DNA of 64,000 nucleotides from an uncultured Holophagales bacterium (GTDB lineage: Bacteria > Acidobacteriota > Thermoanaerobaculia > UBA2201), in the NCBI GenBank assembly GCA_964603505.1, contig CAZRVT010000001.1:52215-116214 (forward strand), written 5' to 3'. Below the pieces are notes generated by a model, which was not told the origin of the DNA, ran no database searches, and worked only from the letters and a program-made list of their open reading frames with translations. Position 1 is the first letter of the stretch, and each line of letters begins with the position of its first letter. Below are positions 1,319-56,724 of this stretch, one piece after another. Position numbers and translations under genes: made by a program.

Positions 1319-1322
1319 CGGC

Positions 1323-3058: not shown

Positions 3059-3070
3059 GGGGCCTCTTTC

Positions 3071-28282: not shown

Positions 28283-28325
28283 CCGGCCCCCTCCCATTTC
28301 CCCCCTGCACGATCTCCCATTGAAA

Positions 28326-28389
28326 GCGGGAGAGGGGGGTTCCCATTCCCGCCCCGAGAGCGAAGCTCTCGGGGGTCCACCCTCTCCCC
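28326..28389. repeat. REP-like structured repeat, copy B
   Basis: gcgggagaggggggttcccattcccgcc, then cccgagagcgaagctctcggg, then gtccaccctctcccc. Same architecture as 16512-16575 but the middle hairpin has a different sequence with preserved pairing. Followed by hairpin ggcctgc-aatctgc-gcaggcc (28405-28425). Confidence 0.55.
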
Positions 28390-28600
28390 GCATGGAGCCC
28401 CCCTCGGCCTGCAATCTGCGCAGGCCGACCCGACAATCGGACCCCGGCCGGATAAGATCTCCAGCGGCAAAACCCGGCTTTCGGCTTCTTTCTTCCGGCT
28501 CCCGTCTACTTCTTGATCTCGATGCCGAGTTCCGTTGTCCGCCTTCCGCAGTTGACGGTTGGCGGTGAGCGGTGGACGGATTGCGGAGAGCGGCTTGCGG

Positions 28601-37548: not shown

Positions 37549-39306
37549 ATGCCCCGGAAATGGATTGCCCTCCTCCTGATGCCGGGCCTGTTGGGGGCCC
37601 AGGCGCCGCCCGAGAGTTCCAAAGAACTCAAGGAGAGCGTCACCTTTGTGGTGGAACTGGCGAAGCACTACGAAATCCTGGAGGACCACCCCGACCTGGA
37701 GCGGGTGACCCGCATCGGCTACACCCTGGTGAAGGCCATCGACCGCCCGAAGGGGACCTACAGCTTCCAGATCGTCAAGATGCCGGAGCCCAACGCCTTC
37801 GCCCTGCCGGCGGGGTTCATCTTCCTCACCACGGGCCTGCTGGAATTGGGGCTCTCCGACGACGCCGTCGCGGCCGTTCTCGGCCATGAGATCATCCACG
37901 CGCAGAACGAGCACTCGCGCGAAATGCAGCGCAAGCAGACTCTCCTGGGCATCCTGGGCAACGCCCTGGTGCTGGGGGCGCTCTTCGGGGCCTCCCGGAG
38001 CGGGCCCAGCCGGCCCGCCCCGGGCCAGCCCGACCCCTTCACCACCCCCGACAGCGTCTGGTCGCAGGGGCAGAACCGGCACCAGAGCGAGGCGGCCAGC
38101 ATCGTCCAGGCCTCCCTCGCCTTCTCGGTCGTCATGCAGGCCCTCCTGATGCAGGGCTACAGCCGGGACAACGAGATGGAGTCGGACCGCGAGGGCACCT
38201 ACCTGATGGCCCAGGCCGGGTTCGACCCGAAGGGGGTGCTGGAACTGCTGGAGGCCATGCGCAAGCGGACCTACGAGGCCCCGGGATACGGCTACTGGCG
38301 CAGCCATCCGTATTTGGAGGAGCGGGCCCGCACGGCGGAGGCGCGCGCCGGGCGGCTCAAGGCCGCCAGCGAGCGGCCCGACCCCTCGGGGACGCAACGG
38401 GCGGCCCAGGAGACCCTGTTCCGGCTGGCGCAGGCGGAAAAGGACCCCGCCCGGGCCGGCGCCCTGGAGCGGCTCGCGGTCAGCGCCTCCCCCACGGGGC
38501 TCACCAGCTTCCTCCTCCGGCGCAAGGCGCTCGACCAGATGGAGGATCGCCTGCGCGCCGCCCCCTTCCCGGAGCGGGACTACGGCGTCCTGCTCCAGGG
38601 CTACCGCCGCCTGCTCGACCGGTTCAGGGACGACCCCGAGACCGCGGCATCCCTGCAGCGGGCGCAGGCGGATTACGACCGGCTGCGGGAGGAGAACGAG
38701 GGGTGCCGCCCCGCCTTCGTCGGCATCCTCGATTTCGGGGTCCCCTCCGTCGCGTTCCTCAAGGCGTTCGCCTCCAACTACCCCGACGACCCCCGGGCCC
38801 CCTACGCCGCCCTGCTCCAGTCGCGCAACCAGTTCCAGCTCGGCGAGGAGGAGGAGGCCGTGGAAGCCCTGGAGCGGGCCTGGGCCTCCCCCGACCCGAT
38901 GGTCCGCGACTGGGCGGAGGCCTCCGTCCTGGCCCGCCTCCACCAGGTGCGCTCGCTGACCGCCTGCCAGCGCCTGGCCGACGCGGTGGCCGGCTCCGCC
39001 TTGGAGCCGTTGGTGCGCCAGCGGTTCGAGACCGTCCTTCCGCTGCTCGACTCGCTCAAGGCGGGCCGCGCGTTCCTGGACGCCTACCCCGCCTCCCCCA
39101 CGGCCGGCCGGGTGAGGGCCCGGATGGAGACGCTGGCCGAGGCGGAGTGGGTCAAGGCGCGGGTATACCAGAAAATGGGCGACGAGCAGCGGGCCCTCAA
39201 CGCCCTCAACGCGGTCCTGGAGAACGCCCCGGAAACCGCGGCCGCGGAGCGGATCCGCGCCGACATTCTGAAGCAAGCCAATCTCGAAGGAGGTTCCCCC
39301 TCATGA
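37549..39306 (+). CDS. M48-family zinc metallopeptidase with C-terminal TPR-like region (BepA-like)
   Basis: Signal peptide, HEIIHAQNEH (HExxH), downstream E ligand, long helical C-terminus. Confidence 0.8.
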   Translation: MPRKWIALLLMPGLLGAQAPPESSKELKESVTFVVELAKHYEILEDHPDLERVTRIGYTLVKAIDRPKGTYSFQIVKMPEPNAFALPAGFIFLTTGLLELGLSDDAVAAVLGHEIIHAQNEHSREMQRKQTLLGILGNALVLGALFGASRSGPSRPAPGQPDPFTTPDSVWSQGQNRHQSEAASIVQASLAFSVVMQALLMQGYSRDNEMESDREGTYLMAQAGFDPKGVLELLEAMRKRTYEAPGYGYWRSHPYLEERARTAEARAGRLKAASERPDPSGTQRAAQETLFRLAQAEKDPARAGALERLAVSASPTGLTSFLLRRKALDQMEDRLRAAPFPERDYGVLLQGYRRLLDRFRDDPETAASLQRAQADYDRLREENEGCRPAFVGILDFGVPSVAFLKAFASNYPDDPRAPYAALLQSRNQFQLGEEEEAVEALERAWASPDPMVRDWAEASVLARLHQVRSLTACQRLADAVAGSALEPLVRQRFETVLPLLDSLKAGRAFLDAYPASPTAGRVRARMETLAEAEWVKARVYQKMGDEQRALNALNAVLENAPETAAAERIRADILKQANLEGGSPS

Positions 39307-41333
39307 AGAAGTTCGCTTTCGCGTGCCTGCTGATCGCGGGCGCCCTCTGGGCCCAGGACTGGGACCAGACCCTCCAAAATCTCGCCGCCCCGACCGTCCA
39401 AGGCACCCTGGAGGCCAAAGACTGGAAGCAGGCATGGGGCAACGCCGCGTTCACCTTCAACGGCACCTGCGCCCGGGTGGCGGCCGGCCCCCACACCATC
39501 GGGTTCCTCTTCTCCGGCACGGGCACGATGGCCCTGGCCGTCCCCGACCGCATCGCCCTTTCGGCGGCCAAGGTCAACCTCAAGGAAGCGGGTTCCTACG
39601 CGCTGGACGCCTCCAACACCCTCCACGAAACCTTCACCGAGGGGTTCTTCATCGTCTTCCCGTTCCTCGATGGCGCCCTCTTCCAAGGCGACGGCGCCCC
39701 CGGGGCCGACCGGCTCAAGGAATACCAGGAAATCACCAAGTGGATGGGACAGCCCACCCTGGACTTCATCCTGGCCCCCGCCCTGTTCAACGGCTACAAG
39801 GGCCCCCAGGTGATGGCGTTCATCAAGGGGAGTCAGGAAAAGAACCTGCTGTATTACCTCGACGCCAACGAGGAGATGAAGGAGTACCTGTTCACCTACA
39901 AGAAGTCGCGCTACCAGCCCGAATTTTACCAGCTCAACCGGCTGGTGACCTCCCCTACCGGCTGGGACTGGAACAAGCGGAGGATCTGGCCCGTCTACCA
40001 GACCGGGGTGGACATGGAGTTCGTTTCCAAGGACAACGTGAGCGCCACCCAGAAGGCGGCCATCGAGTTCACCCCCACGGTGGACGGGGTGCGGGTCCTT
40101 TCGCTCTCCATGTCCAGCGGCCAGTCCAAGGAGTACAAGCTCTGGGACGACCGGGCCGACCCCATCGCCGTCAAGAGGATCACCGGCCCCAAGGGGGAAA
40201 ACATCCCCTTCGCCCACAAGTTCGACGCCATCATCCTCCTGCTCCCCGCCCCGACGAAAAAGGGCCAGCCCGTTGTCCTGACCTTCGAGTCGGAGGGGGC
40301 CTTCCTCAAGAACTACTATGGCGACTCCTACATGGTCCTGGGCAACTGGGACTGGTATCCCACCCTCGATTTCTACGCCCAGGCCAGCCGGTTCCACACC
40401 GTCGTCAAGGTCAAGGCCCCCTGGGTGCCCATTGCGTGCGGGAAGCTGGTCAAGGAGTGGAAGGAGGGGGACCTCAACTGCCTGGAGTCCGACGAGAAGG
40501 AGCCCATGAGCTTCCCCTTCGTCATCGTGGGGGAGTACACGAGCCAGGAGTTCAAAGAAGGGCCTTACCTGCTCCGGTTGCATTCGTATGTCAAATCCAA
40601 GGATAAAGGCGCCGCTAAAATGGCAAAGAACGGATTGGCGGCTCTTGATTTTTACAGCAATGGGATGGTTCCCTTCCCATACAACGAGCTGGATGCAGTT
40701 GAGATCCCCTACTACCGGCACGGCTTCTGGCAAGCCCCGGCTGGCATCGTGGAATTCACTTCTGAAGGAACGAATCCGTGGGGAAACAGCATCCCTGAGG
40801 AGGGAGAAATTCAATTTGAACGATTCGCGGCTTTAGGCCTCAATGCTCGCTTTGCCCACGAATTAGCCCACCAGTGGTGGGGCAACCTGGTTTCCTGGTC
40901 TTCCGACCTCGACAGCTGGCTCTCCGAGTCATGGGCCGAGTATACCTCCTTCCTGTTCATGTCGAAATTTGACAAGAAAAAAGCTAAGGAGCAATTCAGC
41001 GGGAAATACGGATGGATTAACAACACCGCATCGATCAAAGGACGAGGCACGGTAGTCAACAGTGCCTTGCTCGATTTTGACGAAGCCGATGAAGTTTCGA
41101 TGAACCTGCTTTACAGCAAGGGCCCTCTCGTCCTCCACGCCCTCCGCAAGGAGATGGGCGACCAGGCCTTCTTTACCCTCTACAAGAAGTTTCCCGAGGC
41201 GTGCCAGAAGATGAAGATAAAGGCCACCACCGAGGACCTGATCCAGTTCGTCAACGCCATCACCAAAAAGGACTACCGCCCCTTCTTCGACAAATACATC
41301 TACGGCACCGAGGTCCCCGAGGTCAAGGAATAG
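39303..41333 (+). CDS. M1-family (aminopeptidase N-like) zinc metallopeptidase, secreted
   Basis: Signal peptide MKKFAFACLLIAGALWA; HELAHQWWGN..E gluzincin motif. ATGA overlap with the M48 gene. Confidence 0.8.
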   Translation: MKKFAFACLLIAGALWAQDWDQTLQNLAAPTVQGTLEAKDWKQAWGNAAFTFNGTCARVAAGPHTIGFLFSGTGTMALAVPDRIALSAAKVNLKEAGSYALDASNTLHETFTEGFFIVFPFLDGALFQGDGAPGADRLKEYQEITKWMGQPTLDFILAPALFNGYKGPQVMAFIKGSQEKNLLYYLDANEEMKEYLFTYKKSRYQPEFYQLNRLVTSPTGWDWNKRRIWPVYQTGVDMEFVSKDNVSATQKAAIEFTPTVDGVRVLSLSMSSGQSKEYKLWDDRADPIAVKRITGPKGENIPFAHKFDAIILLLPAPTKKGQPVVLTFESEGAFLKNYYGDSYMVLGNWDWYPTLDFYAQASRFHTVVKVKAPWVPIACGKLVKEWKEGDLNCLESDEKEPMSFPFVIVGEYTSQEFKEGPYLLRLHSYVKSKDKGAAKMAKNGLAALDFYSNGMVPFPYNELDAVEIPYYRHGFWQAPAGIVEFTSEGTNPWGNSIPEEGEIQFERFAALGLNARFAHELAHQWWGNLVSWSSDLDSWLSESWAEYTSFLFMSKFDKKKAKEQFSGKYGWINNTASIKGRGTVVNSALLDFDEADEVSMNLLYSKGPLVLHALRKEMGDQAFFTLYKKFPEACQKMKIKATTEDLIQFVNAITKKDYRPFFDKYIYGTEVPEVKE

Positions 41334-41356
41334 CCCCCGGCGCCCCGTCCTCCCAC

Positions 41357-41389
41357 GCCCCGCGGCCCTCTTCGGGCCGCGGGGTTTTC
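41357..41389 (+). terminator. Rho-independent terminator after the M1 peptidase gene
   Basis: gccccgcggccc-tctt-cgggccgcgggg followed by TTTTC. Confidence 0.6.
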
Positions 41390-41466
41390 GGATCCGCCGG
41401 AAATCCACATATCACTCAATACGGATAGGCTTATGACCCCGCGCTTCCCCCCGCCATGGGGGCAAC

Positions 41467-41495
41467 TTGTCATAGGAGGGGAATTGTGTCATAAT
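41467..41495 (+). promoter_or_regulatory. sigma70-type promoter for zapA (TTGTCA-N17-CATAAT)
   Basis: TTGTCA at 41467-41472 and CATAAT at 41490-41495, ~25 nt upstream of the zapA ATG. Confidence 0.4.
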
Positions 41496-41520
41496 CGCCG
41501 TTGGAGTGAAAGGGACGACC

Positions 41521-41811
41521 ATGCACACCGTCGAAGTGACCATCCTGGGGCAGACCTATCGCTTAAAGAGCGATAAGGACCCCGCCTACATGGAGTCCCT
41601 GGCCTCCAAACTCAATTCCCGAATTTCCGAAGTGGCCTCCCACGCCCCCACCGTGGACGCCGTCAAGCTGTTGACGCTCACCGCGCTCAACCTGGTGGAC
41701 CGTCTGGAGGAGCTGGAGGCCCAACGGGGAGACGACCTCCGTCGGACGGAGGAACGGGCGAACAAGCTTTTGGACCGCCTCAACGACGTGTTGGAGGCGA
41801 AGGTTGAGTAG
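41521..41811 (+). CDS. zapA: Cell division protein ZapA
   Basis: MHTVEVTILGQTYRLKSD.. typical ZapA N-terminus with coiled-coil C-terminus. RBS AAAGGGA before the ATG at 41521; the track's 41506 start is GTG. Confidence 0.7.
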   Translation: MHTVEVTILGQTYRLKSDKDPAYMESLASKLNSRISEVASHAPTVDAVKLLTLTALNLVDRLEELEAQRGDDLRRTEERANKLLDRLNDVLEAKVE

Positions 41812-42077
41812 CATCCTGATCCCCCTGCTTCGCGCGCTTTTAGCCGTATTCCCCTGCTTGGTGCGTGTAGAGCTCCGTGCTCCTGAACCAACACTTCCGC
41901 CCCGGGATCGTTCGTGGACGACCGGGCCCGGTGATCCCCGCGGGGAACTGATGGGCCCGGCCCGAGGATCCCACCTGGCTCTGCCAGGTTCAGAGCCACC
42001 GCTCTTACGGCCGAAGCGGGGGATTTTGACCCTCTCGCCCGCTCCATAGACGGGGTCGCCTCCGCCAGGAGGTGACC

Positions 42078-43649
<1,572 letters not shown>

Positions 43650-43653
43650 GGTG

Positions 43654-43720
43654 GAAGGCAGAAGGCAGAAGGCTGAAGGCCGCCCCTCCCTGGCTGCCAG
43701 CTGCCGGCTACCGGCTACGG
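43654..43720. repeat. Two adjacent heptamer tandem arrays: (GAAGGCN)x4 then (GCTRCSG)x4
   Basis: ggaaggcagaaggcagaaggctgaaggcc ..11 nt.. gctgccagctgccggctaccggctacgg. Fills the rny-ymdB spacer. Confidence 0.55.
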
Positions 43721-43730
43721 GGGAGGGCGG

Positions 43731-44519
43731 GTGGTGAGCTTGCGCGTCCTGGGCATCGGCGACGTGGTGGGCAAGCCGGGCCGCAAGGCCCTGGCGGAGC
43801 ACCTCGGCCCGCTGATCCGGGAGCACGGGGTCCACCTGGTGGTGGCCAACATCGAGAACGCGGCCGGGGGGTTCGGGCCGGACCTCAAGACCATGCAGGA
43901 GCTGCTGGAGCTCCCCATCCATGTCTTCACCGCCGGCAGCCACGTGTGGGACAAGAAGGAGTTCGCCGCCGCCCTCGACCTCTACCCCATGGTCCTGCGC
44001 CCCGCCAACTACCCCCCCGGCAACCCCGGCCGGGGGCACATCGTCTGGCCCCTCCCCGACGGCCGGAAGGTGGCGGTGGTCCAGCTGGAGGGGCGCGTCT
44101 TCATGGACGCCCTCGACTGCCCCTTCCGCGCCCTCGACGCCCTCCTGGCCGAGCTCCCGCCGGAGGTCCCGCTCCTGGTGGACTTCCACGGCGAGGCCAC
44201 CTCGGAAAAGCAGGCCTTCGGCCACTACGCCGACGGCCGCGTCGCCGCCGTCTGGGGCACCCACACCCATGTCCCGACGGCCGATGCCCGCATCCTCCCC
44301 GGCGGCACCGCCTTCCTCACCGATGTCGGGATGTGCGGCGCCTACGACTCCGTCATCGGCTTCGACAAGGAGGTCATCGTCGGCAAGTTCCTGCGGCAGG
44401 CCCCCGTGCGGTTCGAGGTGGCCCGGGGAACGGGTCATCTCGCCGGCGTCCTCATCGACATCGACTACGCGACGAAAAAAGCCACCGCCATCCGTCCCCT
44501 GATGGTGCCGGCGCTGTAG
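43731..44519 (+). CDS. ymdB: YmdB-family metallophosphoesterase (2',3'-cNMP phosphodiesterase)
   Basis: LGIGDVVGKPGR, GHIVWPLPDG, DFHGEATSEK, GTHTHVPTAD calcineurin-like motifs. Conserved rny-ymdB linkage. Confidence 0.85.
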   Translation: MVSLRVLGIGDVVGKPGRKALAEHLGPLIREHGVHLVVANIENAAGGFGPDLKTMQELLELPIHVFTAGSHVWDKKEFAAALDLYPMVLRPANYPPGNPGRGHIVWPLPDGRKVAVVQLEGRVFMDALDCPFRALDALLAELPPEVPLLVDFHGEATSEKQAFGHYADGRVAAVWGTHTHVPTADARILPGGTAFLTDVGMCGAYDSVIGFDKEVIVGKFLRQAPVRFEVARGTGHLAGVLIDIDYATKKATAIRPLMVPAL

Positions 44520-44597
44520 CGGTGCCATGTCCCTCGGCGCTGCCGTTATCGTTTGCCGACTTCCCCCTTAAGGGCCGCCGAAACGCAGGGCCCCCTT

Positions 44598-44630
44598 TTC
44601 CTGATCCAAAGGCCGCCGGTTCGATGCCGG
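44598..44630 (+). other. tRNA-Arg 3'-end-like fragment (T-arm + acceptor 3' strand), not a complete tRNA
   Basis: aaaggccgccggttcgatgccggtcagcccccc versus the intact tRNA-Arg 3' part at 3114-3144 (aggccgccggttcgactccggccagcccca): about 25 of 28 identical, same orientation. No cloverleaf found upstream. Confidence 0.5.
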
Positions 44631-44734
44631 TCAGCCCCCCTCCCCTTCCTCCGCCCGGCCGCAAAAAAGCCCCCCGTGCGGAGGGCAAAGCATAGCAGGG
44701 TGTTCAACCCTGGCGTCGGGCCAGGAGGCGTTCG

Positions 44735-45976
44735 TCAGTTCACCGTCTGGCGGAGGGTCTTGCGGGCGACGCCGTAGAGCTCCTCGGGGGTGAAGGGCTT
44801 GGCCATGTAGTCGTCCGCGCCGCGCTTGATCGCGTCCACGGCCGTGTCCACGGAGGCGTAGCCGGTGACCATGACCACGGGGAGGTCGGGGTTGCCTTTC
44901 TTAATGGTGGACAGCAGATCCAGGCCGTTCTCGCTCCCCAGCTTCATGTCGAGAAGGACGAGATCGAAGGGTTCGGCGGCGAGCCGCTCCAGGGCCTCGC
45001 GGCCGTTGAAGGCCTCGGCGATGTCGTAGCCGCGGCGGGCGAGGGTCCGTCGGATGGAGTTGGCCACCACGGCCTCGTCGTCCACCACCAGGACCCGGGG
45101 GGCCTTCACCGAGGCCTTGGCCTCGCGGTAGTGGCTGACCACGGGGATGCCGGAGGGGCCGACGGAGGCGGCGTAGGCCTCGCCGGCGGCGGCGGAGAGC
45201 TCGGCGTAGGAGAAGGGCATGTCCACGTCCACCGGGTCCTCGATCTTGTCGTGCAGGGTCTGGTGCTGGGCGGCCTTCCGGCGCTCGGCGACCACCAGGG
45301 GGCACTCCTTCCCGGGGCAGACCCCCTTGCTGACGAACTTCTTGCACGAGCGCTGGCCGAGGGCGCAGAAGTCGGCGGCGACGGCGGGGCGCTTGGCCGG
45401 GGCCTGCACGACGGGGACGTCGGAGCGGGTGAGGTGTTCCACGTAGGCGGCGGAGGTGGCGTGGGCGACCTCGAGGGCGTCGAAGGGCAGATCGGCGTCG
45501 ATGGTCCCCCTCTCCGCGGGGACGGCGGGGACCTCGGCGAGGGCGCGCTTGACGGCGGCCTCCAGCTCCTCGGGGGTGAAGGGCTTGGGGAGAAAACCGG
45601 CGGCCCCGAGGCGGGTCGCCTCGACGGCGGTGGGGATGGTGGGGAACCCGGTGATCATCAGGAACGGCAGAGCCGGGGAGTTCTCCTTGACCATCTTGAG
45701 GAGTTCGAGGCCGCCCACCTGGGGCATCATCAGGTCGGCGATGATCATGTCCACCGACTCCTCGCGCTTGAGGACATCCAGGGCGTTGTGGACGCTCTGG
45801 GCCTGGGTGACGGCGAACCCGCGGCGCGTGAGGATCTTGTCGACGCTTTGGCAGATGCCGTTCTCGTCGTCCACGACGAGGATCCGGGTCTTCTTGGCGG
45901 TGGCGGCGCTTTCCATGTTCGGCTCCTTCGGTTCAGATTGGCTTCGGGCTTCCCCTCGGCGCTGAACCTTTTGCAT
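44735..45976 (-). CDS. Response regulator with two receiver (REC) domains joined by a Cys-rich linker
   Basis: REC1 (ILVVDDE..D..MP..GLELL..PFLMITGF..KP) and REC2 (VLVVDDE..DLVLLDMKLG..PVVMVTGY..KPF). Linker FCALGQRSCKKFVSKGVCPGKECP (C-x6-C-x8-C-x4-C). Possible alternative start at 45916. Confidence 0.8.
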   Translation of the reverse strand: MQKVQRRGEARSQSEPKEPNMESAATAKKTRILVVDDENGICQSVDKILTRRGFAVTQAQSVHNALDVLKREESVDMIIADLMMPQVGGLELLKMVKENSPALPFLMITGFPTIPTAVEATRLGAAGFLPKPFTPEELEAAVKRALAEVPAVPAERGTIDADLPFDALEVAHATSAAYVEHLTRSDVPVVQAPAKRPAVAADFCALGQRSCKKFVSKGVCPGKECPLVVAERRKAAQHQTLHDKIEDPVDVDMPFSYAELSAAAGEAYAASVGPSGIPVVSHYREAKASVKAPRVLVVDDEAVVANSIRRTLARRGYDIAEAFNGREALERLAAEPFDLVLLDMKLGSENGLDLLSTIKKGNPDLPVVMVTGYASVDTAVDAIKRGADDYMAKPFTPEELYGVARKTLRQTVN

Positions 45977-46223
45977 CGGTCATGCCAGATTTTCCCAGAG
46001 AGGGGATGAGCATGGCGCGCGATGGCCTGTATGCCTGATAATATTGATAGTTGCCTAATCTACGCCAAGGCGGCAGACACGACGATCCCACCCCGATGGT
46101 GCATGTTTTCACCATGCAGGGCTTGACGGCGACGGGAAGCCGATTGTTCGATTAGAGCTTATGGACCAGGCACTTACGATGGTGCATGCAGCCCCGATGC
46201 ACCCCCGGCCCGATTCTATGCAT

Positions 46224-47630
46224 TTACTCCGGGCGGTGCCCCTTGAGGCCGTGCTTGCGCATCAGCGCCTGGAAGTTCTGCCGCTGCATCCCCACGTCCC
46301 GGGCGGCGTGGCTGACGTTCCAGCCGTTCCGCTCCAGGGCCTCGTGCACGAAGATCCGCTCGAGGTCGTCCACCACCTGCTCCCGCTGCTTGCGCTTCAT
46401 CTCCAGGAACTCCTCGTTGGTGCGGGGGACGACGAAGGCGCCGGGCTGGCCTTGCGTGTAGACGGTGGTGGGGAGGTGGCGGGGCTCGAGGACGCCGCCG
46501 TCGAGGGTGATGAGGGCCCCCTCGAGGACGTGCTCGAGCTGGCGGACGTTGCCCGGCCAGTCGTAGTTCTCGAGCGTCAGGAGGGTGGCCTCGGAAAGGG
46601 TGGGGACGGGGCGCCCCGCCCGACCGGCGAGCTTCCGTATGAAATGATAGGCCAGGAGGGGGATGTCCTCCCTGCGCTCGCGCAGCGGGGGGAGGAGGAT
46701 CGGGAACACATGGAGGCGGTAGTAGAGGTCCTCCCGGAAGGTCCCCTCGCCCACCATCTTCGCGAGGTCGCGGTTGGTGGCGAAGACGAGGCGGGTGTCC
46801 ACCTTTCGCACCTGGGTGTCCCCCAGCGGGAGGAACTCCCGCTCCTGGATGAAGCGCAGGAGCTTCCCTTGCACCTCCAGGTCCACGTTGCAGATCTCGT
46901 CGAGGAAAACGGTCCCCCGATCGGCCGCCTCCATGATCCCCCGCTTGTGGGCCACGGCCCCCGTGAAGGCTCCCTTGACGTGCCCGAAGAGATCGCTCTG
47001 GAGCAGCTCCGCCGACAGGGTGCCGCAGTCAACGGCGAAGAAGGGTTTCTCCCGCCGCGGGCTGAGGGCGTGGACCGCCCGGGCGACCAGCTCCTTGCCC
47101 GTGCCGCTCTCCCCCACGATGAGGACGGTGGAGGGGGTGGGGGCCACCTGGCGGATCATCCGGTACACCTCCTGCATCCGGTGCGACCGGCCCACGAGCC
47201 CCTGGAACTCGACGGCGGGGGTCCCCTCGGCCAGGGCCCGCTGGTCGAGGATGCGCCGGCGCCGCTCCCACGCCTTGTCGGCCACGGCCAGGAGCTCCTC
47301 GGCGGTGAACGGCTTGGGGAGGTAGTCGAAGGCCCCCACCTTCATCGTCTCCACCACGGAGGCGATGGTGGCGTAGCCGGTGATGACCACGGCGACGATG
47401 TCGGGGTGCCGGGTGCGCAGGGCGTCCAGCAGCTCCATTCCCCCCATCTCCACCATCTTCAGGTCGGTGAACACGAGGTCGAAGGGCTCCTGCTCCAGCA
47501 ACGCCAGCGCCTGCTTCCCGGAGAGGGCGGTGCGCACGGCGAAGCCCCCCCGGACGAGGACCTTTTCGCAGCTCTTGCCGATGGTCATCTCGTCGTCGAC
47601 GACGAGGACGCGGGGGACGTTCGCCTCCAT
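46224..47630 (-). CDS. Sigma54-dependent response regulator (NtrC family)
   Basis: REC (VLVVDDE..DLVFTDLKM), AAA+ sigma54 module (GESGTGKE, GAFTGA, ESELFG-like QSDLFG), C-terminal HTH. Start ATG at 47630 shares one nt with the HK stop. Confidence 0.9.
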   Translation of the reverse strand: MEANVPRVLVVDDEMTIGKSCEKVLVRGGFAVRTALSGKQALALLEQEPFDLVFTDLKMVEMGGMELLDALRTRHPDIVAVVITGYATIASVVETMKVGAFDYLPKPFTAEELLAVADKAWERRRRILDQRALAEGTPAVEFQGLVGRSHRMQEVYRMIRQVAPTPSTVLIVGESGTGKELVARAVHALSPRREKPFFAVDCGTLSAELLQSDLFGHVKGAFTGAVAHKRGIMEAADRGTVFLDEICNVDLEVQGKLLRFIQEREFLPLGDTQVRKVDTRLVFATNRDLAKMVGEGTFREDLYYRLHVFPILLPPLRERREDIPLLAYHFIRKLAGRAGRPVPTLSEATLLTLENYDWPGNVRQLEHVLEGALITLDGGVLEPRHLPTTVYTQGQPGAFVVPRTNEEFLEMKRKQREQVVDDLERIFVHEALERNGWNVSHAARDVGMQRQNFQALMRKHGLKGHRPE

Positions 47631-49609
47631 CAGACCGGCCCCTCGGGCAGGGACAGGGTGATGGTGGTGCCATGCCCCACGCGGCTTTCCACCCGGATCT
47701 CGCCCCCGTGCCGCTCCAGGATGCCGTAGGCGATGGCCAGTCCCAGCCCCGTCCCGGTGGCCTTGGTGGTGAAGAAGGGCTCGAAGAGCTTGTCCTTGAT
47801 GTCGTCGGGGATGCCGGGCCCGGTGTCGCGGAAGGCCACCTCGATCCGGCCGCGGGCGGGGTCCCGCCGGGAGCCGATGTGGAGCGCCCCCCCCTGGGCC
47901 ATGGCCTCGGAGGCGTTGAGGACGATGTTCAGGACCACCTGCCGCATCTGGTCCTGGTCGGTCATCAGGGTCGGGAGGGCGGGGTCCAGGGCGGTGGTGA
48001 TCGCGATGTTCCGAAACGAGGCCTGGTTCCGCACCAGGGCCAGGACGTCCTCCACCACCCGGTTGAGCGAGGTGGCCGTCTTCTGCGGCGGGGTCTGCCG
48101 GGCGAAGTCGAGAAGCCCCTTGACGATCTTGCGGCACCGGAGGGTCTCGTCGACGATGGTCTGGAGGTCGGGGCGCCGGGGGTCGTCGGCCGGGAGGTCC
48201 TCGAGCATCAGGGAGGCGTTGGTGAGGATGCCGGTGAGGGGGTTGTTGATCTCGTGGGCCACGCCGGCGGCCAGCTTGCCGACGGCGGCCAGCTTCTCGG
48301 TCTGGAAGAGCTGGGCTTGCATGGCTTTCAGCTCGGCGGTGCGCTGCTCCACCTTCTGCTCCAGGGTCTCGGTCCACCCCTTGAGGGCCTGGTGGGTGTC
48401 CTGCAGTTCGGCCACCATCCGGTTGAACGCGTGGGCCAGGTGGGCGATCTCGTCGGTCCCCCGCACCGGCACCCGCTGGGCGTAGTCCCCCGTCGCCACC
48501 TCGTCGGCGGCCCGCGCCATCGCGGCGACGGGCCGGGCGATCTTCTGGGCCACGCGCGTAGCGACGATGATCAGGAGGACCACCCCCAGGGCGGCGATCC
48601 CCAGGAAGAGCGCCAGGGAGCGATGGAGGCCGTCCCGGTAGGGCTTCTCCAGGAGCCCGACGTAGAGCATCCCCACGGTCCGGTCCTCGAGGTTCTTGAG
48701 GGGGGCGTACGCGGAGAGGTACCAGTCGTTGACGACGAAGGCGCGCCCCCGCCAGGTCTCCCCCCGATCCAGGACCGCCTCCGCCACCTCCGCCGAGACG
48801 CGGGTGGCGATGGCCCGGGCCCCGTCGGCCCCCTTGACGTTGGTGCTGACGCGGACGTCCCCCTGGAAGATGGTGACGGTGCCGGTCTCGCGCCCCCGGT
48901 AGAGGGCGTCCTTAAAGACCACGGTGCGCACCTTGTCCACAAGGGTGTAGTTGCGGTTGAGGAGGTTCCCCCCGACGAGGGCCCCCAGAAACCGCTTGGA
49001 GGGGGTGAAAACGGGGGCGCCCCCCTTGAGCATCAGCCCCGCCGTGAGGCGCTTCTGGTCCGTGGGCCGGGCATGGGGGGTGGGGGCCAGGTCCATGGCG
49101 GCCTGCATCGCCAGGGCCTCCGAGGCGCGCCGCAACTCCTCCTCGCCGATGACCTCGGTGCTGGCCACGGGGCTCCGGCGCGCCAGGACCTCCTGGACCG
49201 TGGGGTCGGCCCGGACGTCGTCGCCGGAAAGCTCCGGGTTGGCCGCCCGGAAGACCACCGTCCCCTGGGCGTCCACCAGGGTGAGCACGTCCAAGCCCTC
49301 CTCGGCCCGGATGCGCTCCAGCTCCGGCCCCAGGTCCGCCCGATCCCCCTCGGAGAGGGCCCGGTAGAGGACCATGCGCGTGGCGTGGATCCGCAGGGTG
49401 TCCTTGAGCCGGTCGAGGGCGTTGGCGTAAATCTCCTTGGCCGATTCCAGATCGGAGTTGATCTTGGACTGGGCCTGGCCGTAGACGTGCTTCTTGATGG
49501 TCTGCACCCCCACGATGGTGGTGATGAGGGCGGGGACCAGGATGGCGACCGCGAAGGAGAGGATGAGGCGGGCCCGGAGGCTGCTCCGGATGAGCGACTG
49601 GAGGGTCAC
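47630..49609 (-). CDS. Sensor histidine kinase (periplasmic Cache-like sensor, HAMP, HisKA, HATPase_c)
   Basis: Two TM segments flanking a ~300-aa sensor domain. H-box AAGVAHEINNPL, N-box LNIVLNASEA, DTGPGIP, GTGLGLAI. ATGA overlap with the upstream hydrogenase maturation protease gene. Confidence 0.85.
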   Translation of the reverse strand: MTLQSLIRSSLRARLILSFAVAILVPALITTIVGVQTIKKHVYGQAQSKINSDLESAKEIYANALDRLKDTLRIHATRMVLYRALSEGDRADLGPELERIRAEEGLDVLTLVDAQGTVVFRAANPELSGDDVRADPTVQEVLARRSPVASTEVIGEEELRRASEALAMQAAMDLAPTPHARPTDQKRLTAGLMLKGGAPVFTPSKRFLGALVGGNLLNRNYTLVDKVRTVVFKDALYRGRETGTVTIFQGDVRVSTNVKGADGARAIATRVSAEVAEAVLDRGETWRGRAFVVNDWYLSAYAPLKNLEDRTVGMLYVGLLEKPYRDGLHRSLALFLGIAALGVVLLIIVATRVAQKIARPVAAMARAADEVATGDYAQRVPVRGTDEIAHLAHAFNRMVAELQDTHQALKGWTETLEQKVEQRTAELKAMQAQLFQTEKLAAVGKLAAGVAHEINNPLTGILTNASLMLEDLPADDPRRPDLQTIVDETLRCRKIVKGLLDFARQTPPQKTATSLNRVVEDVLALVRNQASFRNIAITTALDPALPTLMTDQDQMRQVVLNIVLNASEAMAQGGALHIGSRRDPARGRIEVAFRDTGPGIPDDIKDKLFEPFFTTKATGTGLGLAIAYGILERHGGEIRVESRVGHGTTITLSLPEGPV

Positions 49610-50097
49610 TCGCCCATCCCGGGGGCCCCGAGCCAGCGGTCGACGACGCGCCGGCCGCGGTCCACGTACGCCGGCAGGGCCCGGGCCACCTTTTCCGTCA
49701 ACCCTTCCTCGATGAGGAAGGGGTCCTCCACCTCCATGGCCAGAATCACCAGCTCGTCCGGAATGGGCAGGCCCATCCGCCGCGCGATCTCCATGGCCAT
49801 GGGGAGGCCGATGTAGTGGGGGGAGGGGGACGGGACCGGGGCCAGCGACGCGATGCCGAACTCCTTGATGGTGCCCGGCTCCTCCCCCTGCTGGATGGCG
49901 TCGAGGACGAGGACCCGGCGGTAGGGCACGAGGTGGTCGAGCAGGCCGAGGCTGGACTCCGGGGCCTCCACGACGTCCACCCGGCCGCGATAGTGCGCGT
50001 CCAGGGCGCGGCCGGCGTAGAGGCCGAGGCCGTCGTCCTTCAACTGCTCGTTGCCGAGGGCGAGAACCAATATATCCTTGCGGTCGTCGGTCGTCAT
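49606..50097 (-). CDS. Hydrogenase maturation endopeptidase (HyaD/HybD/FrhD family)
   Basis: VLALGNEQLKDDGLG motif with conserved Asp and His ligands; 163 aa. Confidence 0.85.
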   Translation of the reverse strand: MTTDDRKDILVLALGNEQLKDDGLGLYAGRALDAHYRGRVDVVEAPESSLGLLDHLVPYRRVLVLDAIQQGEEPGTIKEFGIASLAPVPSPSPHYIGLPMAMEIARRMGLPIPDELVILAMEVEDPFLIEEGLTEKVARALPAYVDRGRRVVDRWLGAPGMGE

Positions 50098-50152
50098 GAA
50101 AAGACCGTCTTGGGTCTTCTTCGGCCTTCCGCCTGCGGCCTTTAGCCCGTGC

Positions 50153-51613
50153 CTACGTGTTGAACTCCCGCACCTTTTCCCCGCGGTGGTCGTAGATCCG
50201 AACCGAGAGCGGATAGTGCCCCGGCAGGGTGTGGGTGCCGCAGCCGTGGCAGGGGTCGTAGGCGCGGTAGGTCATCTCCACCATGTTGAGGATCCCGTCG
50301 TCCGCCTTGCCCCCCTTGATGAAGGCCTTGGCGGAGCGCTGAAGCCCCAGGTTCATGGCGGCGGAGTTGTGCTGGGTGGCCACGATGATGTTGGCCTTCT
50401 CGATGATGCCGTTGGGGTCGGTTGTGTAGTGGTGGATGAGCAGGCCGCGCGGCGCCTCCACGATGCCGACGCCCTCCTCGGGGGTCCGGGACGGGATGGC
50501 GCGCACCTTGGGGTCCAGGATCTCGGGGTCGTGGGCCAGCTCTTTGATATGCTCGGCCGCGTAGAGGGCTTCGATGAGGCGAGCCCAATGGTAGGCCAGG
50601 GTGAAGTGGACCGGCCTGCCGCCCAGCGTCGCGTACATCTTCTCGTATTCGGCCTGGGCCAGCGGGGTGGCCATGCCGTCGGAGGCGTTGAGCCGGGCGA
50701 GGGGGGCGGTGCGGTAGACGCCGCTCTCCTCGCCGTCCTTCCACCCCTGCCAGCCGACCTTCTTGAGGAACGGGAACTTGATGTAGCTCCAGGGTTCCAC
50801 GTGCTCCCCGATGTGCTCGGTGTACTCGGGGCTGCGGAACTTGTTGAACTCCTTCCCCGCGGGGGTGACCGTGCGGATCATCCCGTCGTAGAAGTTGACC
50901 TTGTTGGCCCCGTCCACCATGCCGATGTAGTAGGTCTTGTTGATGTAGGCGTCGCCGGTGATCAAACCGACGTAGTCCTTGTTCTTGAGGACGATGTCGT
51001 TGAAGGCCTGGAGGGAGAAGAGGGCGAAGTCCACGCCGGCGGCGGCGACCGCCTGCAGGTTGGCCAGGTCGTCCTTCTTGAAGGGCTTGGTCACGCCGCC
51101 GGGAAGTCCGAGGACGGGATGCACCGCCTTGCCTCCCATCCGGGTCATGATGTCGCGCAGTTCGCGGCGGATCTTGATCACCTTGCCGCCGATCTCCAGC
51201 CCCACCTTCCCCAGCACCCCGACGATGTTGCGCTCGGCCCGGGGGGCCGCGGGGCCCACGATGAAGTCGGGGCCGCCGAGGTAGTAGAAGTGGAGGGTGT
51301 GGTCCTCGAGCATGAAGATGGAGTAGAAGAGGTCGCGGAGCTTCTGGGCGGCCGGGGGCGGGTCCACCTTGAAGAGGGCGTCGAGCGCCTTGGTGGAGGC
51401 CATGTGGTGGGCCGTGGGGCAGACGCCGCAGATGCGCTGGGTGATGCGCGGCATCTCTTCGGCGGCCCGCCCGACGCAGAACTGCTCGAATCCCCGCAGC
51501 TCGGGGATCTGCAGGTAGGCGTTTGCCACGTCGCCCTTATCGTCGAGGAAGATCTCGATCTTGCCGTGGCCCTCGAGGCGGGTGATGGGGTCGATGGTGA
51601 TGCGCTTTTCCAT
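50153..51613 (-). CDS. mvhA: [NiFe]-hydrogenase large subunit, group 3 (MvhA-like)
   Basis: N-terminal RxEGHG, L1 CGVC, C-terminal DPCHGCGTH followed by a short extension (protease substrate). Confidence 0.9.
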   Translation of the reverse strand: MEKRITIDPITRLEGHGKIEIFLDDKGDVANAYLQIPELRGFEQFCVGRAAEEMPRITQRICGVCPTAHHMASTKALDALFKVDPPPAAQKLRDLFYSIFMLEDHTLHFYYLGGPDFIVGPAAPRAERNIVGVLGKVGLEIGGKVIKIRRELRDIMTRMGGKAVHPVLGLPGGVTKPFKKDDLANLQAVAAAGVDFALFSLQAFNDIVLKNKDYVGLITGDAYINKTYYIGMVDGANKVNFYDGMIRTVTPAGKEFNKFRSPEYTEHIGEHVEPWSYIKFPFLKKVGWQGWKDGEESGVYRTAPLARLNASDGMATPLAQAEYEKMYATLGGRPVHFTLAYHWARLIEALYAAEHIKELAHDPEILDPKVRAIPSRTPEEGVGIVEAPRGLLIHHYTTDPNGIIEKANIIVATQHNSAAMNLGLQRSAKAFIKGGKADDGILNMVEMTYRAYDPCHGCGTHTLPGHYPLSVRIYDHRGEKVREFNT

Positions 51614-51628
51614 GGGCGTTCTCCTCGG

Positions 51629-52588
51629 TCAGACCTTGCGCTTGAGGTACGATTTGGACATCGAGTAGCGGTAGAAGGTGCCGGCGGGATCGGGGATGGA
51701 CTCGACGAGCTTGGCGATGGCCTCGTCCTCCTTGGCGTCGAACAGGGAGGCGAGGGCCGAGACGAACTTGGCCCCCTGGTCCGTGACGCCGTCGATGGGA
51801 CCCATGCAGCCCCGGCAGGGGCTGTTGCCGTGGATGCAACGCTCGTCGCATCCGCCCCGGGTGACGGGGCCCATGCAGATGACCCCTTGGGCCAGGAAGC
51901 ACTTCTCCTCGTCCAGCTCGATCTCGTGGGGCCGGTAGAACTTGGTGATGGAGAGCTTCTCCGGCTTGGTCTTGTTCCGCTCGCAGGTGTCGCAATTGGT
52001 GCGGTTGGGGGCCAGCACCGCCCCCTTGGGGGGGAGCTTGCCCTCCAGCAGGGCCTGGACGGCCGCCATGAAGAGGGCCGGCGGGACGGTGCAGCCGGGC
52101 AGGTAGTAGTCCACGTCGATGACCTGGTCGAGGGCGTACACCTGCTCCCACAGTTTCGGAAGGGTGAGCGTCCCCTCGGCGACCTTCGTCTCCTCCTGGG
52201 GGTACACCTTCGCGGGGTTGACGGAAGAGACGGTGTCCACGTAGGCGGTCTTCATGATCTCGGCCTTGGTGGTGAAGTTGGCCAGGGCCGGGATGCCGCC
52301 CAGGTGGGCGCAGGAGCCGAACGCCACCACGACCTGCGACTTCCTCCGGAGGAGGTGGACCATCTCCTCCTGCTCGGAGGAGCGGATGGCCCCGTTGATG
52401 AACGCCACGGTGATGGCCCCGTCGGCCATCGCCTCCAGGTCCTCCCGCTTGAAGTCCATGGCGCAAGGCCAGAAGACGATGTCCACGGCCGCGACGACCT
52501 TGAGGACCTCCTCGGCCAGGTCCACGACGGTCTCCTCGCACCCCCCGCAGGAGGCGCACCAGTAAAAGGCGACCTTCGGCTTAGCCAT
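51629..52588 (-). CDS. mvhG: [NiFe]-hydrogenase small subunit, group 3c (MvhG-like)
   Basis: CASCGGCEE proximal-cluster motif, further Cys clusters (CDTCERN, CMGPVTRGGCDERC, CRGCMGP). Confidence 0.85.
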   Translation of the reverse strand: MAKPKVAFYWCASCGGCEETVVDLAEEVLKVVAAVDIVFWPCAMDFKREDLEAMADGAITVAFINGAIRSSEQEEMVHLLRRKSQVVVAFGSCAHLGGIPALANFTTKAEIMKTAYVDTVSSVNPAKVYPQEETKVAEGTLTLPKLWEQVYALDQVIDVDYYLPGCTVPPALFMAAVQALLEGKLPPKGAVLAPNRTNCDTCERNKTKPEKLSITKFYRPHEIELDEEKCFLAQGVICMGPVTRGGCDERCIHGNSPCRGCMGPIDGVTDQGAKFVSALASLFDAKEDEAIAKLVESIPDPAGTFYRYSMSKSYLKRKV

Positions 52589-53030
52589 GCACGACCTCCT
52601 TCCGGACCTTCGAGGGCCCGAGGGCGCGGATCTGCTCGGTGAACTCGTTGACGACGTGCTGGAACTTGTCCCCCTCGGCCGCCGAGATCCACTCGAGGCG
52701 GAACCGCTCGGGCTCGATGCCGAACTGGGGGAGCATCCTCTTCAGGAGGTGGTAGCGCCGCAGGGCCTTGAAGTTCCCCTCCTGGTAGTGGCAGTCGGAG
52801 GGGGTGTGGCAGCCGGCCACCAGGACGGCGTCGGCCCCCTCGGCGAAGGCCTTCATGACGAACTGGCTGTCCACCCGCCCGGAGCACATGACGCGGATGG
52901 GCCGCACGTTGGGCAGGTATTTCATGCGGGCGGTCCCGGCCAGATCGGCGCCGGTGTACGAGCACCAGTTGCACAGGAACGCCACGATGCGGGGCTCGAA
53001 CGCATGGGCTTGGGATGTCGCGCTCATCAC
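52581..53030 (-). CDS. mvhD: MvhD/FlpD-type hydrogenase iron-sulfur subunit
   Basis: RIVAFLCNWCSY..VMCSGRVD..VLVAGCH MvhD signature; 149 aa. Confidence 0.85.
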   Translation of the reverse strand: MMSATSQAHAFEPRIVAFLCNWCSYTGADLAGTARMKYLPNVRPIRVMCSGRVDSQFVMKAFAEGADAVLVAGCHTPSDCHYQEGNFKALRRYHLLKRMLPQFGIEPERFRLEWISAAEGDKFQHVVNEFTEQIRALGPSKVRKEVVHG

Positions 53031-53039
53031 ATATCCCTC

Positions 53040-54791
53040 CTATACCGCCAGGATCCCTTCGATCTCGGCGAAGATCTGCTCGTCGCGGAAGTGCTTCTGG
53101 AAGGCCGCGGCCGAGGGGCAGGCGGCCACGCAGGTGCCGCACCCCTTGCAGAGGGCCTCGTTGATGACCGAGCGGTTCTTCTCCTTGTCGTAGGCGATCG
53201 CCGTGTAGGGACAGAGGCCGACGCAGATCTGGCAGCCGGAACAGAGCTCCTCGACGATCTCGGCCGTCACCGCCTCGGTCTCCACCTCGCCGCGCTGGAT
53301 CAGGGAGAGCGCCGCCGAGGCGGCCGCGCCGGCCTGGGCCACCGTGTCCGGGATGTCCTTGGGGCCCTGGCAGGCGCCGGCGATGAAGATGCCGTCGGCC
53401 GCCGTGGAGACGGGAGCCAGCTTGGGGTGCTTCTCGGTGAAGAAGCCGTCCTTGCCCGTGCTGCAGGTGAAGAGGTGGGAGAGTTCCCGCGCCTCGGGCT
53501 TGGCCTCGATGGCGAGGCAGAGGACCACCAGGTCCACGGGGATGCGGCGGACGACGCCGATCATCGTGTCCTCCGCCCGCATGACGAGGCGCCCCTCTTC
53601 CGAGGGGTCCAGGGCGGCGTCGTTGATCTCCGCCACCTTCCCCCGGACGAAGTTGACCCCCTCCTTCAGCAGGCGGTTGTAGAACTCTTCGTACCCCTTC
53701 CCGAAGCACCGCATGTCGATATAGAAGTTGTAGACCTCGCAGTCGTGGATCTTCTCCTTGATCAGATGGGCGAACTTCAGGGCGTACATGCAGCAGACGC
53801 GGGAGCAGTATTCGTGGTATTTCTGGTCGCGGCTCCCCACGCAGTGGACGATCCCGATGCTCTTGGGAACCTTTCCGTCGGCGGTCAGGATCTTGCCCCC
53901 CGTGGGGCCGCCGGCGTTGTTGAGGACCTCGAAATCGAGGCTGGTCATCACGTTCTTGTACTTGCCGTACCCGTATTCCTTCAGCCCGCGGGGGTCCTGC
54001 AGCTGGAACCCGGTGGTGAGGAGGATGGAGCCCACCTCCACCTCCTCCACCCGATCCTGCTGGGCGTGGTCGATGGCCCGGGCCTCGCAGACGTCGACGC
54101 ACACTTGGCACTTGCCCGTCTTGAAGTGGATGCAGGAGTCCCGGTCGATGACGGCCTTGCGGGGGACCGCCTGCATGAAGTCGATGTGGATGGAGGTCAG
54201 GGGCCCCATCGGCATGGCGGCGTAGATCCCCTCCTGGTCGTCCTTGATCTTGATGGCGCCGGTGGGGCAGACGGAGGCGCAGGCGCCGCAGGCGATGCAC
54301 TGCTCGCTGGTGCGGTCGTAGGCGGTGGAGACGGTGCGGTGCGGACCCCGGTCGAAGAAGCCGAGGACGTGGGCCCCCACCACGTCGCTGCAGACCTTGA
54401 CGCAAAGACCGCAGAGGATGCAGTCGTCGTCGCCGCGTCCGAAGCGGCCGGTGGCGCCGTACTCCTCCGCCAGCGCGTTGATCACGGGAACGTTGCCGCA
54501 CCGGGCGAGCATCCACTCCAGGATCATCCGGCGGCTGCGGAGGACCCGCTCGGATCGGGTGAACACCTCGATCCCGTTGCTGACGGGGTAGTTGCAGGCG
54601 GTCACCATCCGGACGCGGTTCCGCAAGTGCACCTCCACGGTGCAGATGCGGCAGACGCCGTAGGCCTCCACCAGCGGGTGGTGGCACAGCGTGGGGATTT
54701 TGACGCCCGCCTTCTCCGCCGCCTGGAGCAGGGGCGTCCGGTCCGCGACCTCAAGCTCGATGCCGTCGATCTTGATCTTGGCCATGTTCAT
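53040..54791 (-). CDS. hdrA: Fusion protein: NuoG/HndD-N-terminal-like Fe-S domain (2Fe-2S + 4Fe-4S clusters) joined to the C-terminal ~two-thirds of heterodisulfide reductase subunit A
   Basis: N-terminal: 2Fe-2S (CHHPLVEAYGVCRIC), CILCGLCVKVC, CIACGACASVCP, C..C..C...C. C-terminal: SILLTTGFQ..YGYGKY..SLDFE..GGPTGGKI..IVHCVGSRD..YCSRVCCMY, GIFIAGACQGPKDIPDTV and C-terminal ferredoxin CSGCQICVGLCPY../CKGCGTCVAACP, colinear with HdrA residues ~300-650. Confidence 0.75.
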   Translation of the reverse strand: MNMAKIKIDGIELEVADRTPLLQAAEKAGVKIPTLCHHPLVEAYGVCRICTVEVHLRNRVRMVTACNYPVSNGIEVFTRSERVLRSRRMILEWMLARCGNVPVINALAEEYGATGRFGRGDDDCILCGLCVKVCSDVVGAHVLGFFDRGPHRTVSTAYDRTSEQCIACGACASVCPTGAIKIKDDQEGIYAAMPMGPLTSIHIDFMQAVPRKAVIDRDSCIHFKTGKCQVCVDVCEARAIDHAQQDRVEEVEVGSILLTTGFQLQDPRGLKEYGYGKYKNVMTSLDFEVLNNAGGPTGGKILTADGKVPKSIGIVHCVGSRDQKYHEYCSRVCCMYALKFAHLIKEKIHDCEVYNFYIDMRCFGKGYEEFYNRLLKEGVNFVRGKVAEINDAALDPSEEGRLVMRAEDTMIGVVRRIPVDLVVLCLAIEAKPEARELSHLFTCSTGKDGFFTEKHPKLAPVSTAADGIFIAGACQGPKDIPDTVAQAGAAASAALSLIQRGEVETEAVTAEIVEELCSGCQICVGLCPYTAIAYDKEKNRSVINEALCKGCGTCVAACPSAAAFQKHFRDEQIFAEIEGILAV

Positions 54792-54809
54792 CGTCGTCCT
54801 CCTCCCGCC

Positions 54810-56708: not shown

Positions 56709-56724
56709 CGTGCGCTCCCTTCCC

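Follow-up and report, generated by a model that had tools for sequence, protein, structure and literature searches.

Background

Where a genomic island or prophage resides in a tRNA gene, its distal end is marked by a displaced fragment from the 3' part of that gene, which is known as the Islander principle (PMC4383910, citing Williams 2002). The integrating element repairs the split tRNA gene by a copy of its own, and the native 3' part is moved to the distal end of the island (PMC4383910). Attachment (att) sites of class "A", i.e., those centred on the anticodon, were assigned to 2083 of 3919 islands (PMC4383910). Passages of PMC9897764 on prokaryotic annotation describe a related phenomenon, partial tRNA genes and pseudo-tRNAs which are mis-scored as tRNAs.

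The window considered in this work is a continuous stretch of 64,000 nucleotides from an uncultured Holophagales bacterium. It contains a fragment of the 3' half of a tRNA-Arg gene, and the fragment belongs to the well-known class of displaced tDNA fragments. As in Islander-type islands, it is found downstream of the intact cognate tRNA gene in direct orientation and extends from the anticodon loop to the 3' end; foreign DNA starts exactly at the 3' end of the intact tRNA-Arg, and the same tRNA gene provides classic examples in relatives. Unlike in such islands, the 41.4 kb between gene and fragment yielded no integrase gene and are core, essential DNA to three quarters, and the integrase filter of Islander would reject the region. 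In addition, the fragment is 15% diverged, and both of its flanks are rearrangement junctions. The tandem island arrays, known as "tandems" in Islander and present in Holophagales bacterium UBA2201 (GCA_002424725.1), share target gene, att boundary and lineage with the window, and are likewise degenerate and devoid of integrase, but in the window a profile search detects a single fragment, located far off rather than within a few kb of the gene. Like the pseudo-tRNAs covered in those passages of PMC9897764, the fragment is a non-functional partial copy of a tRNA gene; unlike them, it is called by neither ARAGORN nor Rfam and thus carries no risk of mis-annotation.

Results

The tRNA-Arg fragment and its specificity

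Two features of the window are compared in this section:
3071-3144, + strand: intact tRNA-Arg(CCT) gene called by ARAGORN, putative integration target (attL side)
44598-44638, + strand: tRNA-Arg(CCT) 3'-half fragment covering tRNA positions 32-72 (anticodon loop through the last acceptor base); probable displaced 3' half and attR-type relic

A BLAST comparison within the window aligned the 41-nt fragment (TTCCTGATCCAAAGGCCGCCGGTTCGATGCCGGTCAGCCCC) to the tRNA-Arg(CCT) gene (TTCCTAATCCGTAGGCCGCCGGTTCGACTCCGGCCAGCCCC) without gaps, with 35 of 41 positions (85%) identical and an E value of 1.5e-7. The gene segment that is repeated at 44598 is the 3' half, 3103-3144; tRNA positions 32-72 are given in cloverleaf numbering and correspond to bases 33-73 of the 74-nt gene in the BLAST count. 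The six substitutions relative to the gene, A37G, G42A, T43A, C59T, T60G and C65T, comprise four transitions and two transversions. Identity begins at T32 in the anticodon loop (TTCCT), which is a recognised crossover sublocation of class A, and the fragment contains the anticodon loop with CCT kept, the 3' strand of the anticodon stem, the variable loop, the T arm and the 3' strand of the acceptor. It is on the same strand as the intact gene and downstream of it. The most similar part is the core at 44611-44638 (variable loop, T arm and acceptor), in which 25 of 28 positions are identical to the gene, leaving three mismatches; matches of this grade did not occur in any of 100 dinucleotide shuffles.

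The original prediction had described a 3' part of tRNA-Arg without a cloverleaf, which follows the gene at a distance of 41 kb and has its orientation, and this agrees with the present assignment of 44598-44638 (+), at which ARAGORN and Rfam make no call. Its context was also given correctly, i.e., a convergent spacer between ymdB at 43731-44519 (+) and the dual-REC regulator gene at 44735-45976 (-), with dnaB, guaB and secA in the interval. From the proposed limits of 44598-44630 the start was retained, while the end had to be moved, being 8 nt short of 44638 and omitting the acceptor 3' strand which the same description included. Similarly, an identity of about 90% holds for the core but not for those 33 nt, where it is 28/33 (85%).

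The fragment is specific to the tRNA-Arg(CCT) of this lineage. Apart from tRNA-Arg(CCT) at 3071-3144 (+), ARAGORN found only one tRNA gene in the window, tRNA-Asn(GTT) at 23117-23191 (+), which agrees with the fragment at 11 of 41 positions in register and reaches 66% in a gapped alignment. A profile made from the tRNA and its fragments in relatives, with the window fragment left out, matched the window at 3103-3154 (E 1e-16) and at 44598-44638 (E 2e-7), followed by a next best match at E 0.28. The degenerate 25-base pattern GGCCGCCGGTTCGANNCCGGNCAGCCCC, in which the three T-arm positions differing between fragment and gene were left free, was present in one of 185,579 species genomes, that of Holophagales bacterium UBA2201 (L013), and this lone match is itself a displaced tRNA-Arg(CCT) fragment. 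A generic T-arm consensus, which had been named in advance as the finding that would overturn the original prediction, is ruled out by the low agreement with tRNA-Asn, the specificity of the independent profile and the single genome with the pattern. The exact 28-mer of the fragment was absent from the 185,579 species genomes and from the viral contig collection, the 28-mer of the intact gene was absent from the latter collection, and the 44-mer from the 5' part of tRNA-Arg gave 0 matches in metagenome contigs. An independent Logan contig (L001) was identical to the window throughout the spacer holding the fragment.

No cloverleaf was found at the fragment by ARAGORN, no Rfam match at E<=10 was obtained in 44300-44900, and there is no 5' acceptor strand upstream of the fragment. 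The spacer folds no better than its shuffles (z = +1.13), and its centroid fold consists solely of a residual T-arm hairpin, GCCGG-TTCGATG-CCGGT, in which a G-T wobble takes the place of G-C. A terminator scan found no T-run after this hairpin on the + strand, and the fragment is not conserved in the ymdB or regulator spacers of relatives. The fragment thus has neither the paired acceptor stem and cloverleaf nor the conservation expected from a functional tRNA or tRNA-like RNA. A structured RNA was rejected on the grounds of the fold scores and the empty Rfam search. The relic is apparently non-functional, and no sign of function was seen; in practice, its annotation as a gene or regulatory RNA should be avoided.

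The intact tRNA-Arg gene and the island remnant beside it

The following features adjoin the intact gene on its downstream side:
3145-~13000 (right edge approximate), directly downstream of tRNA-Arg: foreign-looking island remnant, recognised by GC3, GC and absence from the relative L100
~3389-4094, + strand: IS30-family transposase pseudogene, pieces of HTH_38 and NF033563 in different frames
4176-12989, island cargo: an ORF of 1023 aa, unmatched in Pfam, NCBIfam and PADLOC
4176-12989, island cargo: an 819-aa protein with VWA and AAA-lid domains
4176-12989, island cargo: an AbiEii-like nucleotidyltransferase
4176-12989, island cargo: a Ser/Thr kinase fused to an FGE-sulfatase domain

The tRNA-Arg gene together with its promoter region is collinear with three relatives (L100, L096 and L101), and the homology with L100 stops about 10 nt beyond the window gene, at 3154. 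Open reading frames at 4176-12989 have GC3 values of 0.70-0.84, as compared with 0.93-0.97 for native genes elsewhere, and GC falls to 0.565 at 4-5 kb. The IS30 pieces consist of an HTH_38 match at 26.4 bits and of NF033563 positions 172-227 and 220-267 in two frames, with the middle absent; there is no intact DDE gene, and the transposase is a pseudogene. PADLOC returned only generic kinase-domain matches for the cargo, and a defence system is therefore not claimed. A search for a tyrosine integrase (PF00589), which covered 26 ORFs within 3145-44597 and the longer six-frame segments from 3145-4200, gave no match, although a badly decayed pseudogene could have escaped it.

Two further candidates at the far side of the foreign region were discarded. 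A possible second scar at its right edge, ~13.09-13.14 kb (CCAGCCCACCCCTTCCTCC), looked alike by eye and was absent from the profile matches listed at E<=100. A 13-nt inverted match between 3152-3164 and 13249-13261 had an E value of 25 and fell inside a coding region, and was considered to be due to chance.

The tRNA-Arg locus in relatives

In UBA2201 (L013) the orthologous tRNA-Arg(CCT) has its first 44 nt identical to those in the window, a conserved promoter and the same divergent p132 gene upstream. The two loci share 82.6% nucleotide identity over 574 nt, and the similarity stops exactly at the tRNA 3' end. In genomes of the UBA2201 type the gene is followed by three 3'-half fragments in direct orientation, located in L013 as follows:
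1641-1683, - strand: tandem tRNA-Arg 3'-half fragment, within 6 kb downstream of the gene
3125-3159, - strand: tandem tRNA-Arg 3'-half fragment, within 6 kb downstream of the gene
3378-3429, - strand: tandem tRNA-Arg 3'-half fragment, within 6 kb downstream of the gene

Fragment A (TTCCTAATCCGTAGGCCGCCGGTTCGACTCCGGCCAGCCCCA) lies about 4 kb downstream of the gene in the same orientation, is preceded by AT-rich DNA, and is identical to the 3' half of the intact tRNA-Arg in the window. Fragments A and B, both full-length, start at TTCCT, position 32, as the window fragment does; the third is shorter and decayed. The same array of three fragments occurs in four more contigs of the UBA2201 species group (L094-L097). 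The expressed tRNA-Arg of UBA2201 differs in its variable loop and T arm, which read TTGTC GGGGG TTCGACT CCCCC. Judging by these features, the UBA2201 locus represents a textbook attL/attR arrangement.

Some side observations were made on the same contigs. The tRNA-Arg(CCT) genes in L013 (7427-7500), L096 (7913-7986) and L101 (165-238) are natural chimeras with a 5' part from the host; in their T stem the integrated element has apparently replaced GCCGG/CCGGC by GGGGG/CCCCC, and the pairing is fully kept. The L013 fragments are interleaved with TIG/TPR genes and a gene for an AAA_14/DUF4143 ATPase, with no integrase among them, and in L095 an rve_3 transposase is found further along from the fragment array.

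The contig L100 is collinear with the window over 1-3154, including the DUF5916 gene, the regulatory cluster and the tRNA. Its tRNA-Arg is uninterrupted, and since the flank which follows is homologous to that after UBA2201 fragment A, the L100-type flank was regarded as the native one. A BrnT/BrnA toxin-antitoxin pair is encoded directly downstream of this uninterrupted gene (L100 1481-1992), and the "empty" site of L100 may itself hold old mobile cargo. The closest relative, L101 (88%), agrees with UBA2201 both in its T arm, which is of the element type, and in its element flank. Three independent Logan contigs of relatives end in the anticodon arm of tRNA-Arg, two at about position 33 (L098, L099) and one at position 43 (L103); contig ends at the start of the att duplication suggest population-level variation at the crossover. 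Another contig, L104, ends at or before tRNA-Arg and has no downstream context. Four lineages have four different insertions at tRNA-Arg(CCT), and the gene, located beside the hydrogenase regulatory cluster, is thus a recurrent integration hot spot in this poorly sampled lineage of Holophagae.

The spacer between ymdB and the regulator gene

The surroundings of the fragment are composed as follows:
43731-44519, + strand: ymdB
44522-44597, + strand: private spacer after ymdB, with the CCCTTAAGGG hairpin region followed by ~21 nt of unassigned origin
44639-44662, + strand: pyrimidine-rich flank of 24 nt, CCTCCCCTTCCTCCGCCCGGCCGC, resembling the native downstream flank of tRNA-Arg in relatives
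44663-44734, - strand: 3' flank of the dual-REC regulator gene with an intrinsic terminator, a hairpin at 44669-44686 followed by a T-run (- strand)
44735-45976, - strand: dual-REC regulator gene

The fragment sits at a double synteny breakpoint, with edges at 44521 and 44663. On the left side, relatives L002-L004 (YmdB 89% identical) are collinear with window 38900-44521, and blastn homology ends 2 nt past the ymdB stop codon. In these relatives ymdB is followed by recN and other genes, all of which are missing from the window. On the right side, relatives L006-L009 (regulator 83% identical) align through the terminator hairpin, homology beginning at window position 44663; past this breakpoint the regulator-side relatives differ from lineage to lineage. 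The stretch 44522-44662, with the fragment in its middle, is private to the window genome and had no match in the other fetched loci except for the identical L001. The CCCTTAAGGG hairpin region is weakly similar to the hairpin found after ymdB in relatives, and the ~21 nt before the fragment may be a right-end remnant of an element.

The ymdB and regulator spacers of relatives contained no tRNA or tRNA remnant. None of the relatives shared this fragment, and none had the predicted empty site next to the gene that is now its right-hand neighbour. DNA downstream of their regulator gene showed no similarity to DNA downstream of tRNA-Arg. As a minor difference on the ymdB side, a 157-aa ORF with no Pfam match lies between rny and ymdB in L003 (4685-5158) and L004 (4656-5129), and is missing at window 43696-43722.

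Discussion

Origin of the fragment

The fragment is closer to the native-type 3' half, as found in the window gene and in UBA2201 fragment A (35/41), than to element-type halves (28-29/41). The 24 nt that follow it align to the flanks in L100 and after UBA2201 fragments A and B with a local-alignment score above that of 99.5% of random 24-mers from the window, corresponding to p ~0.005 for the summed scores and 0.0066 for L100 alone; as the sequence is of low complexity, this likeness to the native flank is suggestive only. The native flank is kept for only ~24 nt, and its lost continuation is GGCATGG..GCGGACGC. The change A37G is unusual for a tRNA that reads a codon starting with A. Together with A37G, the substitutions G42A and T43A mark the fragment as a decayed copy rather than an alternative functional half. 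The latter two would unpair the anticodon stem if combined with the present 5' half, so that the relic cannot be a pristine displaced half and decay has to be assumed. Six substitutions in 41 nt support an old integration event, in line with the ancient date suggested originally.

Since the flank is native-like and the locus at 3071 is collinear with the flank-bearing relatives, the fragment would most likely be the displaced original 3' end of that very gene, the two having been parted by a later rearrangement. On this point we depart from the original prediction, which had judged a link between the scar and the tRNA at 3071 to be improbable and had suggested another tRNA-Arg isoacceptor as its source. 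The CCT anticodon is kept, and the closest sequence is the native-type half of the CCT gene. The central idea of that prediction, an att-type scar of a tRNA-targeting integrative element, is upheld by the boundary at position 32, shared with UBA2201 fragments A and B, and by the native type of both sequence and flank.

We therefore consider it quite probable that the fragment is an attR-type relic, decayed and non-functional, which comprises the original 3' half of tRNA-Arg(CCT) and ~24 nt of its original flank and which was left by an integration and stranded by rearrangement. An element with a tyrosine integrase would have recombined with tRNA-Arg(CCT) at the anticodon loop. The replacement 3' half brought by the element would have kept the gene at 3071-3144 intact, while the native half, as a displaced fragment of attR type, would have ended up at the distal side of the insert. 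The integrase would since have been lost, with ~10 kb of foreign DNA and the IS30 pseudogene staying beside the gene, and the relic would have drifted by six substitutions. A later rearrangement would then have stranded it between the terminators of ymdB and the regulator gene, and ~31 kb of core genes would now intervene.

A truncated tRNA gene might also arise with no integration at all, if a second complete tRNA-Arg(CCT) had once stood between ymdB and the regulator gene and had lost its 5' half by deletion during rearrangement. The location of the fragment exactly at a synteny breakpoint, the private DNA of unassigned origin on its left, and the lack of integrase or element DNA adjoining it are all compatible with such a history. 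However, the fragment is truncated at precisely the nucleotide, position 32, that forms the att boundary of fragments A and B in UBA2201, and a random deletion would end within 1 nt of this boundary in only ~3/74 of cases. Moreover, the sequence after the fragment is similar to the native flank at the one conserved tRNA-Arg locus, that by the p132 cluster, and this spacer holds no tRNA in any relative; the loss of half of a second gene is in our opinion quite unlikely. Elements targeting the gene carry a 3' half of their own, as seen from the element-type T arm in UBA2201 and L101, and the fragment might be such an attP/attL-type copy, left by an element that had entered a secondary site between ymdB and the regulator gene and was then almost wholly deleted. 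With this origin the attP-side sequence expected would be CCGCCGAAACGCAGGGCCCCCTT followed by TTCCTGATCCAAAGG. The ~86 private nucleotides around the fragment and the junctions on both sides would fit, but the greater similarity to the native-type than to the element-type half does not, and the flank resembles the bacterial (B') flank and not the left ends of elements found after intact genes. Considering also that the 28-mer has no match in the viral contig collection, we find an element's own copy improbable.

A functional RNA in the ymdB 3' UTR, either a mimic of T arm and acceptor or a hairpin serving in processing, stability or termination, would draw on the fact that the T-arm hairpin can still be folded and is the sole structure in the centroid fold. 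It is extremely unlikely in view of the lack of conservation in the ymdB and regulator spacers of all relatives, the missing 5' acceptor strand and T-run, a fold which does not exceed the shuffles and the absence of an Rfam match. The displaced original 3' half remains our preferred explanation.

The 41-kb interval and the split hydrogenase cluster

The interval is a composite of the island remnant and ~31 kb of core genes. From 13.2 to 44.5 kb it consists of core genes with native codon usage (GC3 0.93-0.97), among them those for an aldehyde dehydrogenase, sdhBA, dnaB, mlaED, tRNA-Asn, lepB, guaB, secA, a SpoIID-like protein, an M1 peptidase, zapA, rny and ymdB. The part with foreign composition, 3145-~13000, is absent from L100, window 38900-44521 is syntenic in L002-L004, and in no relative is the tRNA joined directly to the regulator side. 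The original prediction had held that the interval is not one giant island, and the core genes with native codon usage and the synteny breakpoints on both sides bear this out. Because the interval is mostly core and the block from M1 peptidase to ymdB is syntenic in relatives, a simple picture of tRNA, island and fragment needs extra steps of rearrangement.

On the left, the interval is bordered by one more conserved feature:
204-2958, - strand: regulatory cluster of p132, CBS/HATPase, DRTGG, PHP and HATPase genes (Pfam), conserved left flank of tRNA-Arg

This cluster adjoins tRNA-Arg in every relative of at least 80% identity whose contig extends to the gene, and it is 54-60% identical at the amino acid level to the cluster of a more distant relative, L010 (tblastn). 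Of 50 metagenome loci with a length of at least 6 kb, 44 have the cluster inside an operon for a NuoF-type hydrogenase. To the right of the fragment the window has the dual-REC regulator, a sigma-54 regulator, a histidine kinase and the operon for a NuoF-type [NiFe] hydrogenase, so that the cluster (204-2958) is 41 kb away from the hydrogenase operon region (44735-57108), while in L010 the cluster and the hydrogenase-side set abut. The usual proximity of the two fits an interposition of everything between the tRNA and its displaced half. This reading is weakened by the L010 cluster, which is in the opposite orientation and has no tRNA, by L100 and UBA2201, which have no hydrogenase genes in the 2-8 kb available downstream of the tRNA, and by the retention of only 24 nt of native flank. 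The fragment dates and locates a chromosomal reshuffle by which the hydrogenase operon was parted from regulatory genes that are usually embedded in it.

The L002 arrangement, in which recN follows ymdB, was not reconciled with the window by one inversion; this would place recN to the left of the HATPase gene, whereas window 1-75 belongs to the 3' end of a DUF5916 gene, in agreement with L100, and a single inversion was rejected. The core DNA is best described as having been brought in by at least one three-breakpoint event, one breakpoint of which coincides with the left edge of the relic. Mobile elements can capture flanking chromosome by aberrant excision, as in the specialised transducing genomes of lambda gal/bio and in F-prime formation. 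By analogy only, such a process would account for core genes between the two attachment scars of one element. It is conceivable, although unlikely, that an element left a second chromosomal position by aberrant excision, captured ~31 kb of adjacent core DNA and re-integrated at tRNA-Arg as one unit. With the same low probability, core genes including the single-copy essential dnaB, secA, guaB and rny would then have undergone an integrase-driven intragenomic translocation, with attL and attR as its sole footprints. Support in the form of a circular intermediate, a second att scar or a donor site was not found. If recombination at att sites did move core genes here, the locus would be a useful case of mobile-element scars driving rearrangement of the core genome.

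Two observations were made on the composition of the interval. The cumulative GC skew has a minimum at ~28000-29000, but the skew mostly tracks gene orientation, the coding strand being C-rich, and the minimum may not mark an origin. The gene for the M1-family peptidase, 39303-41333, has a GC3 of 0.76, much below that of its neighbours, and is 76% identical in nucleotides to the copy in relatives as compared with 87% for zapA-rny-ymdB, yet it is syntenic.
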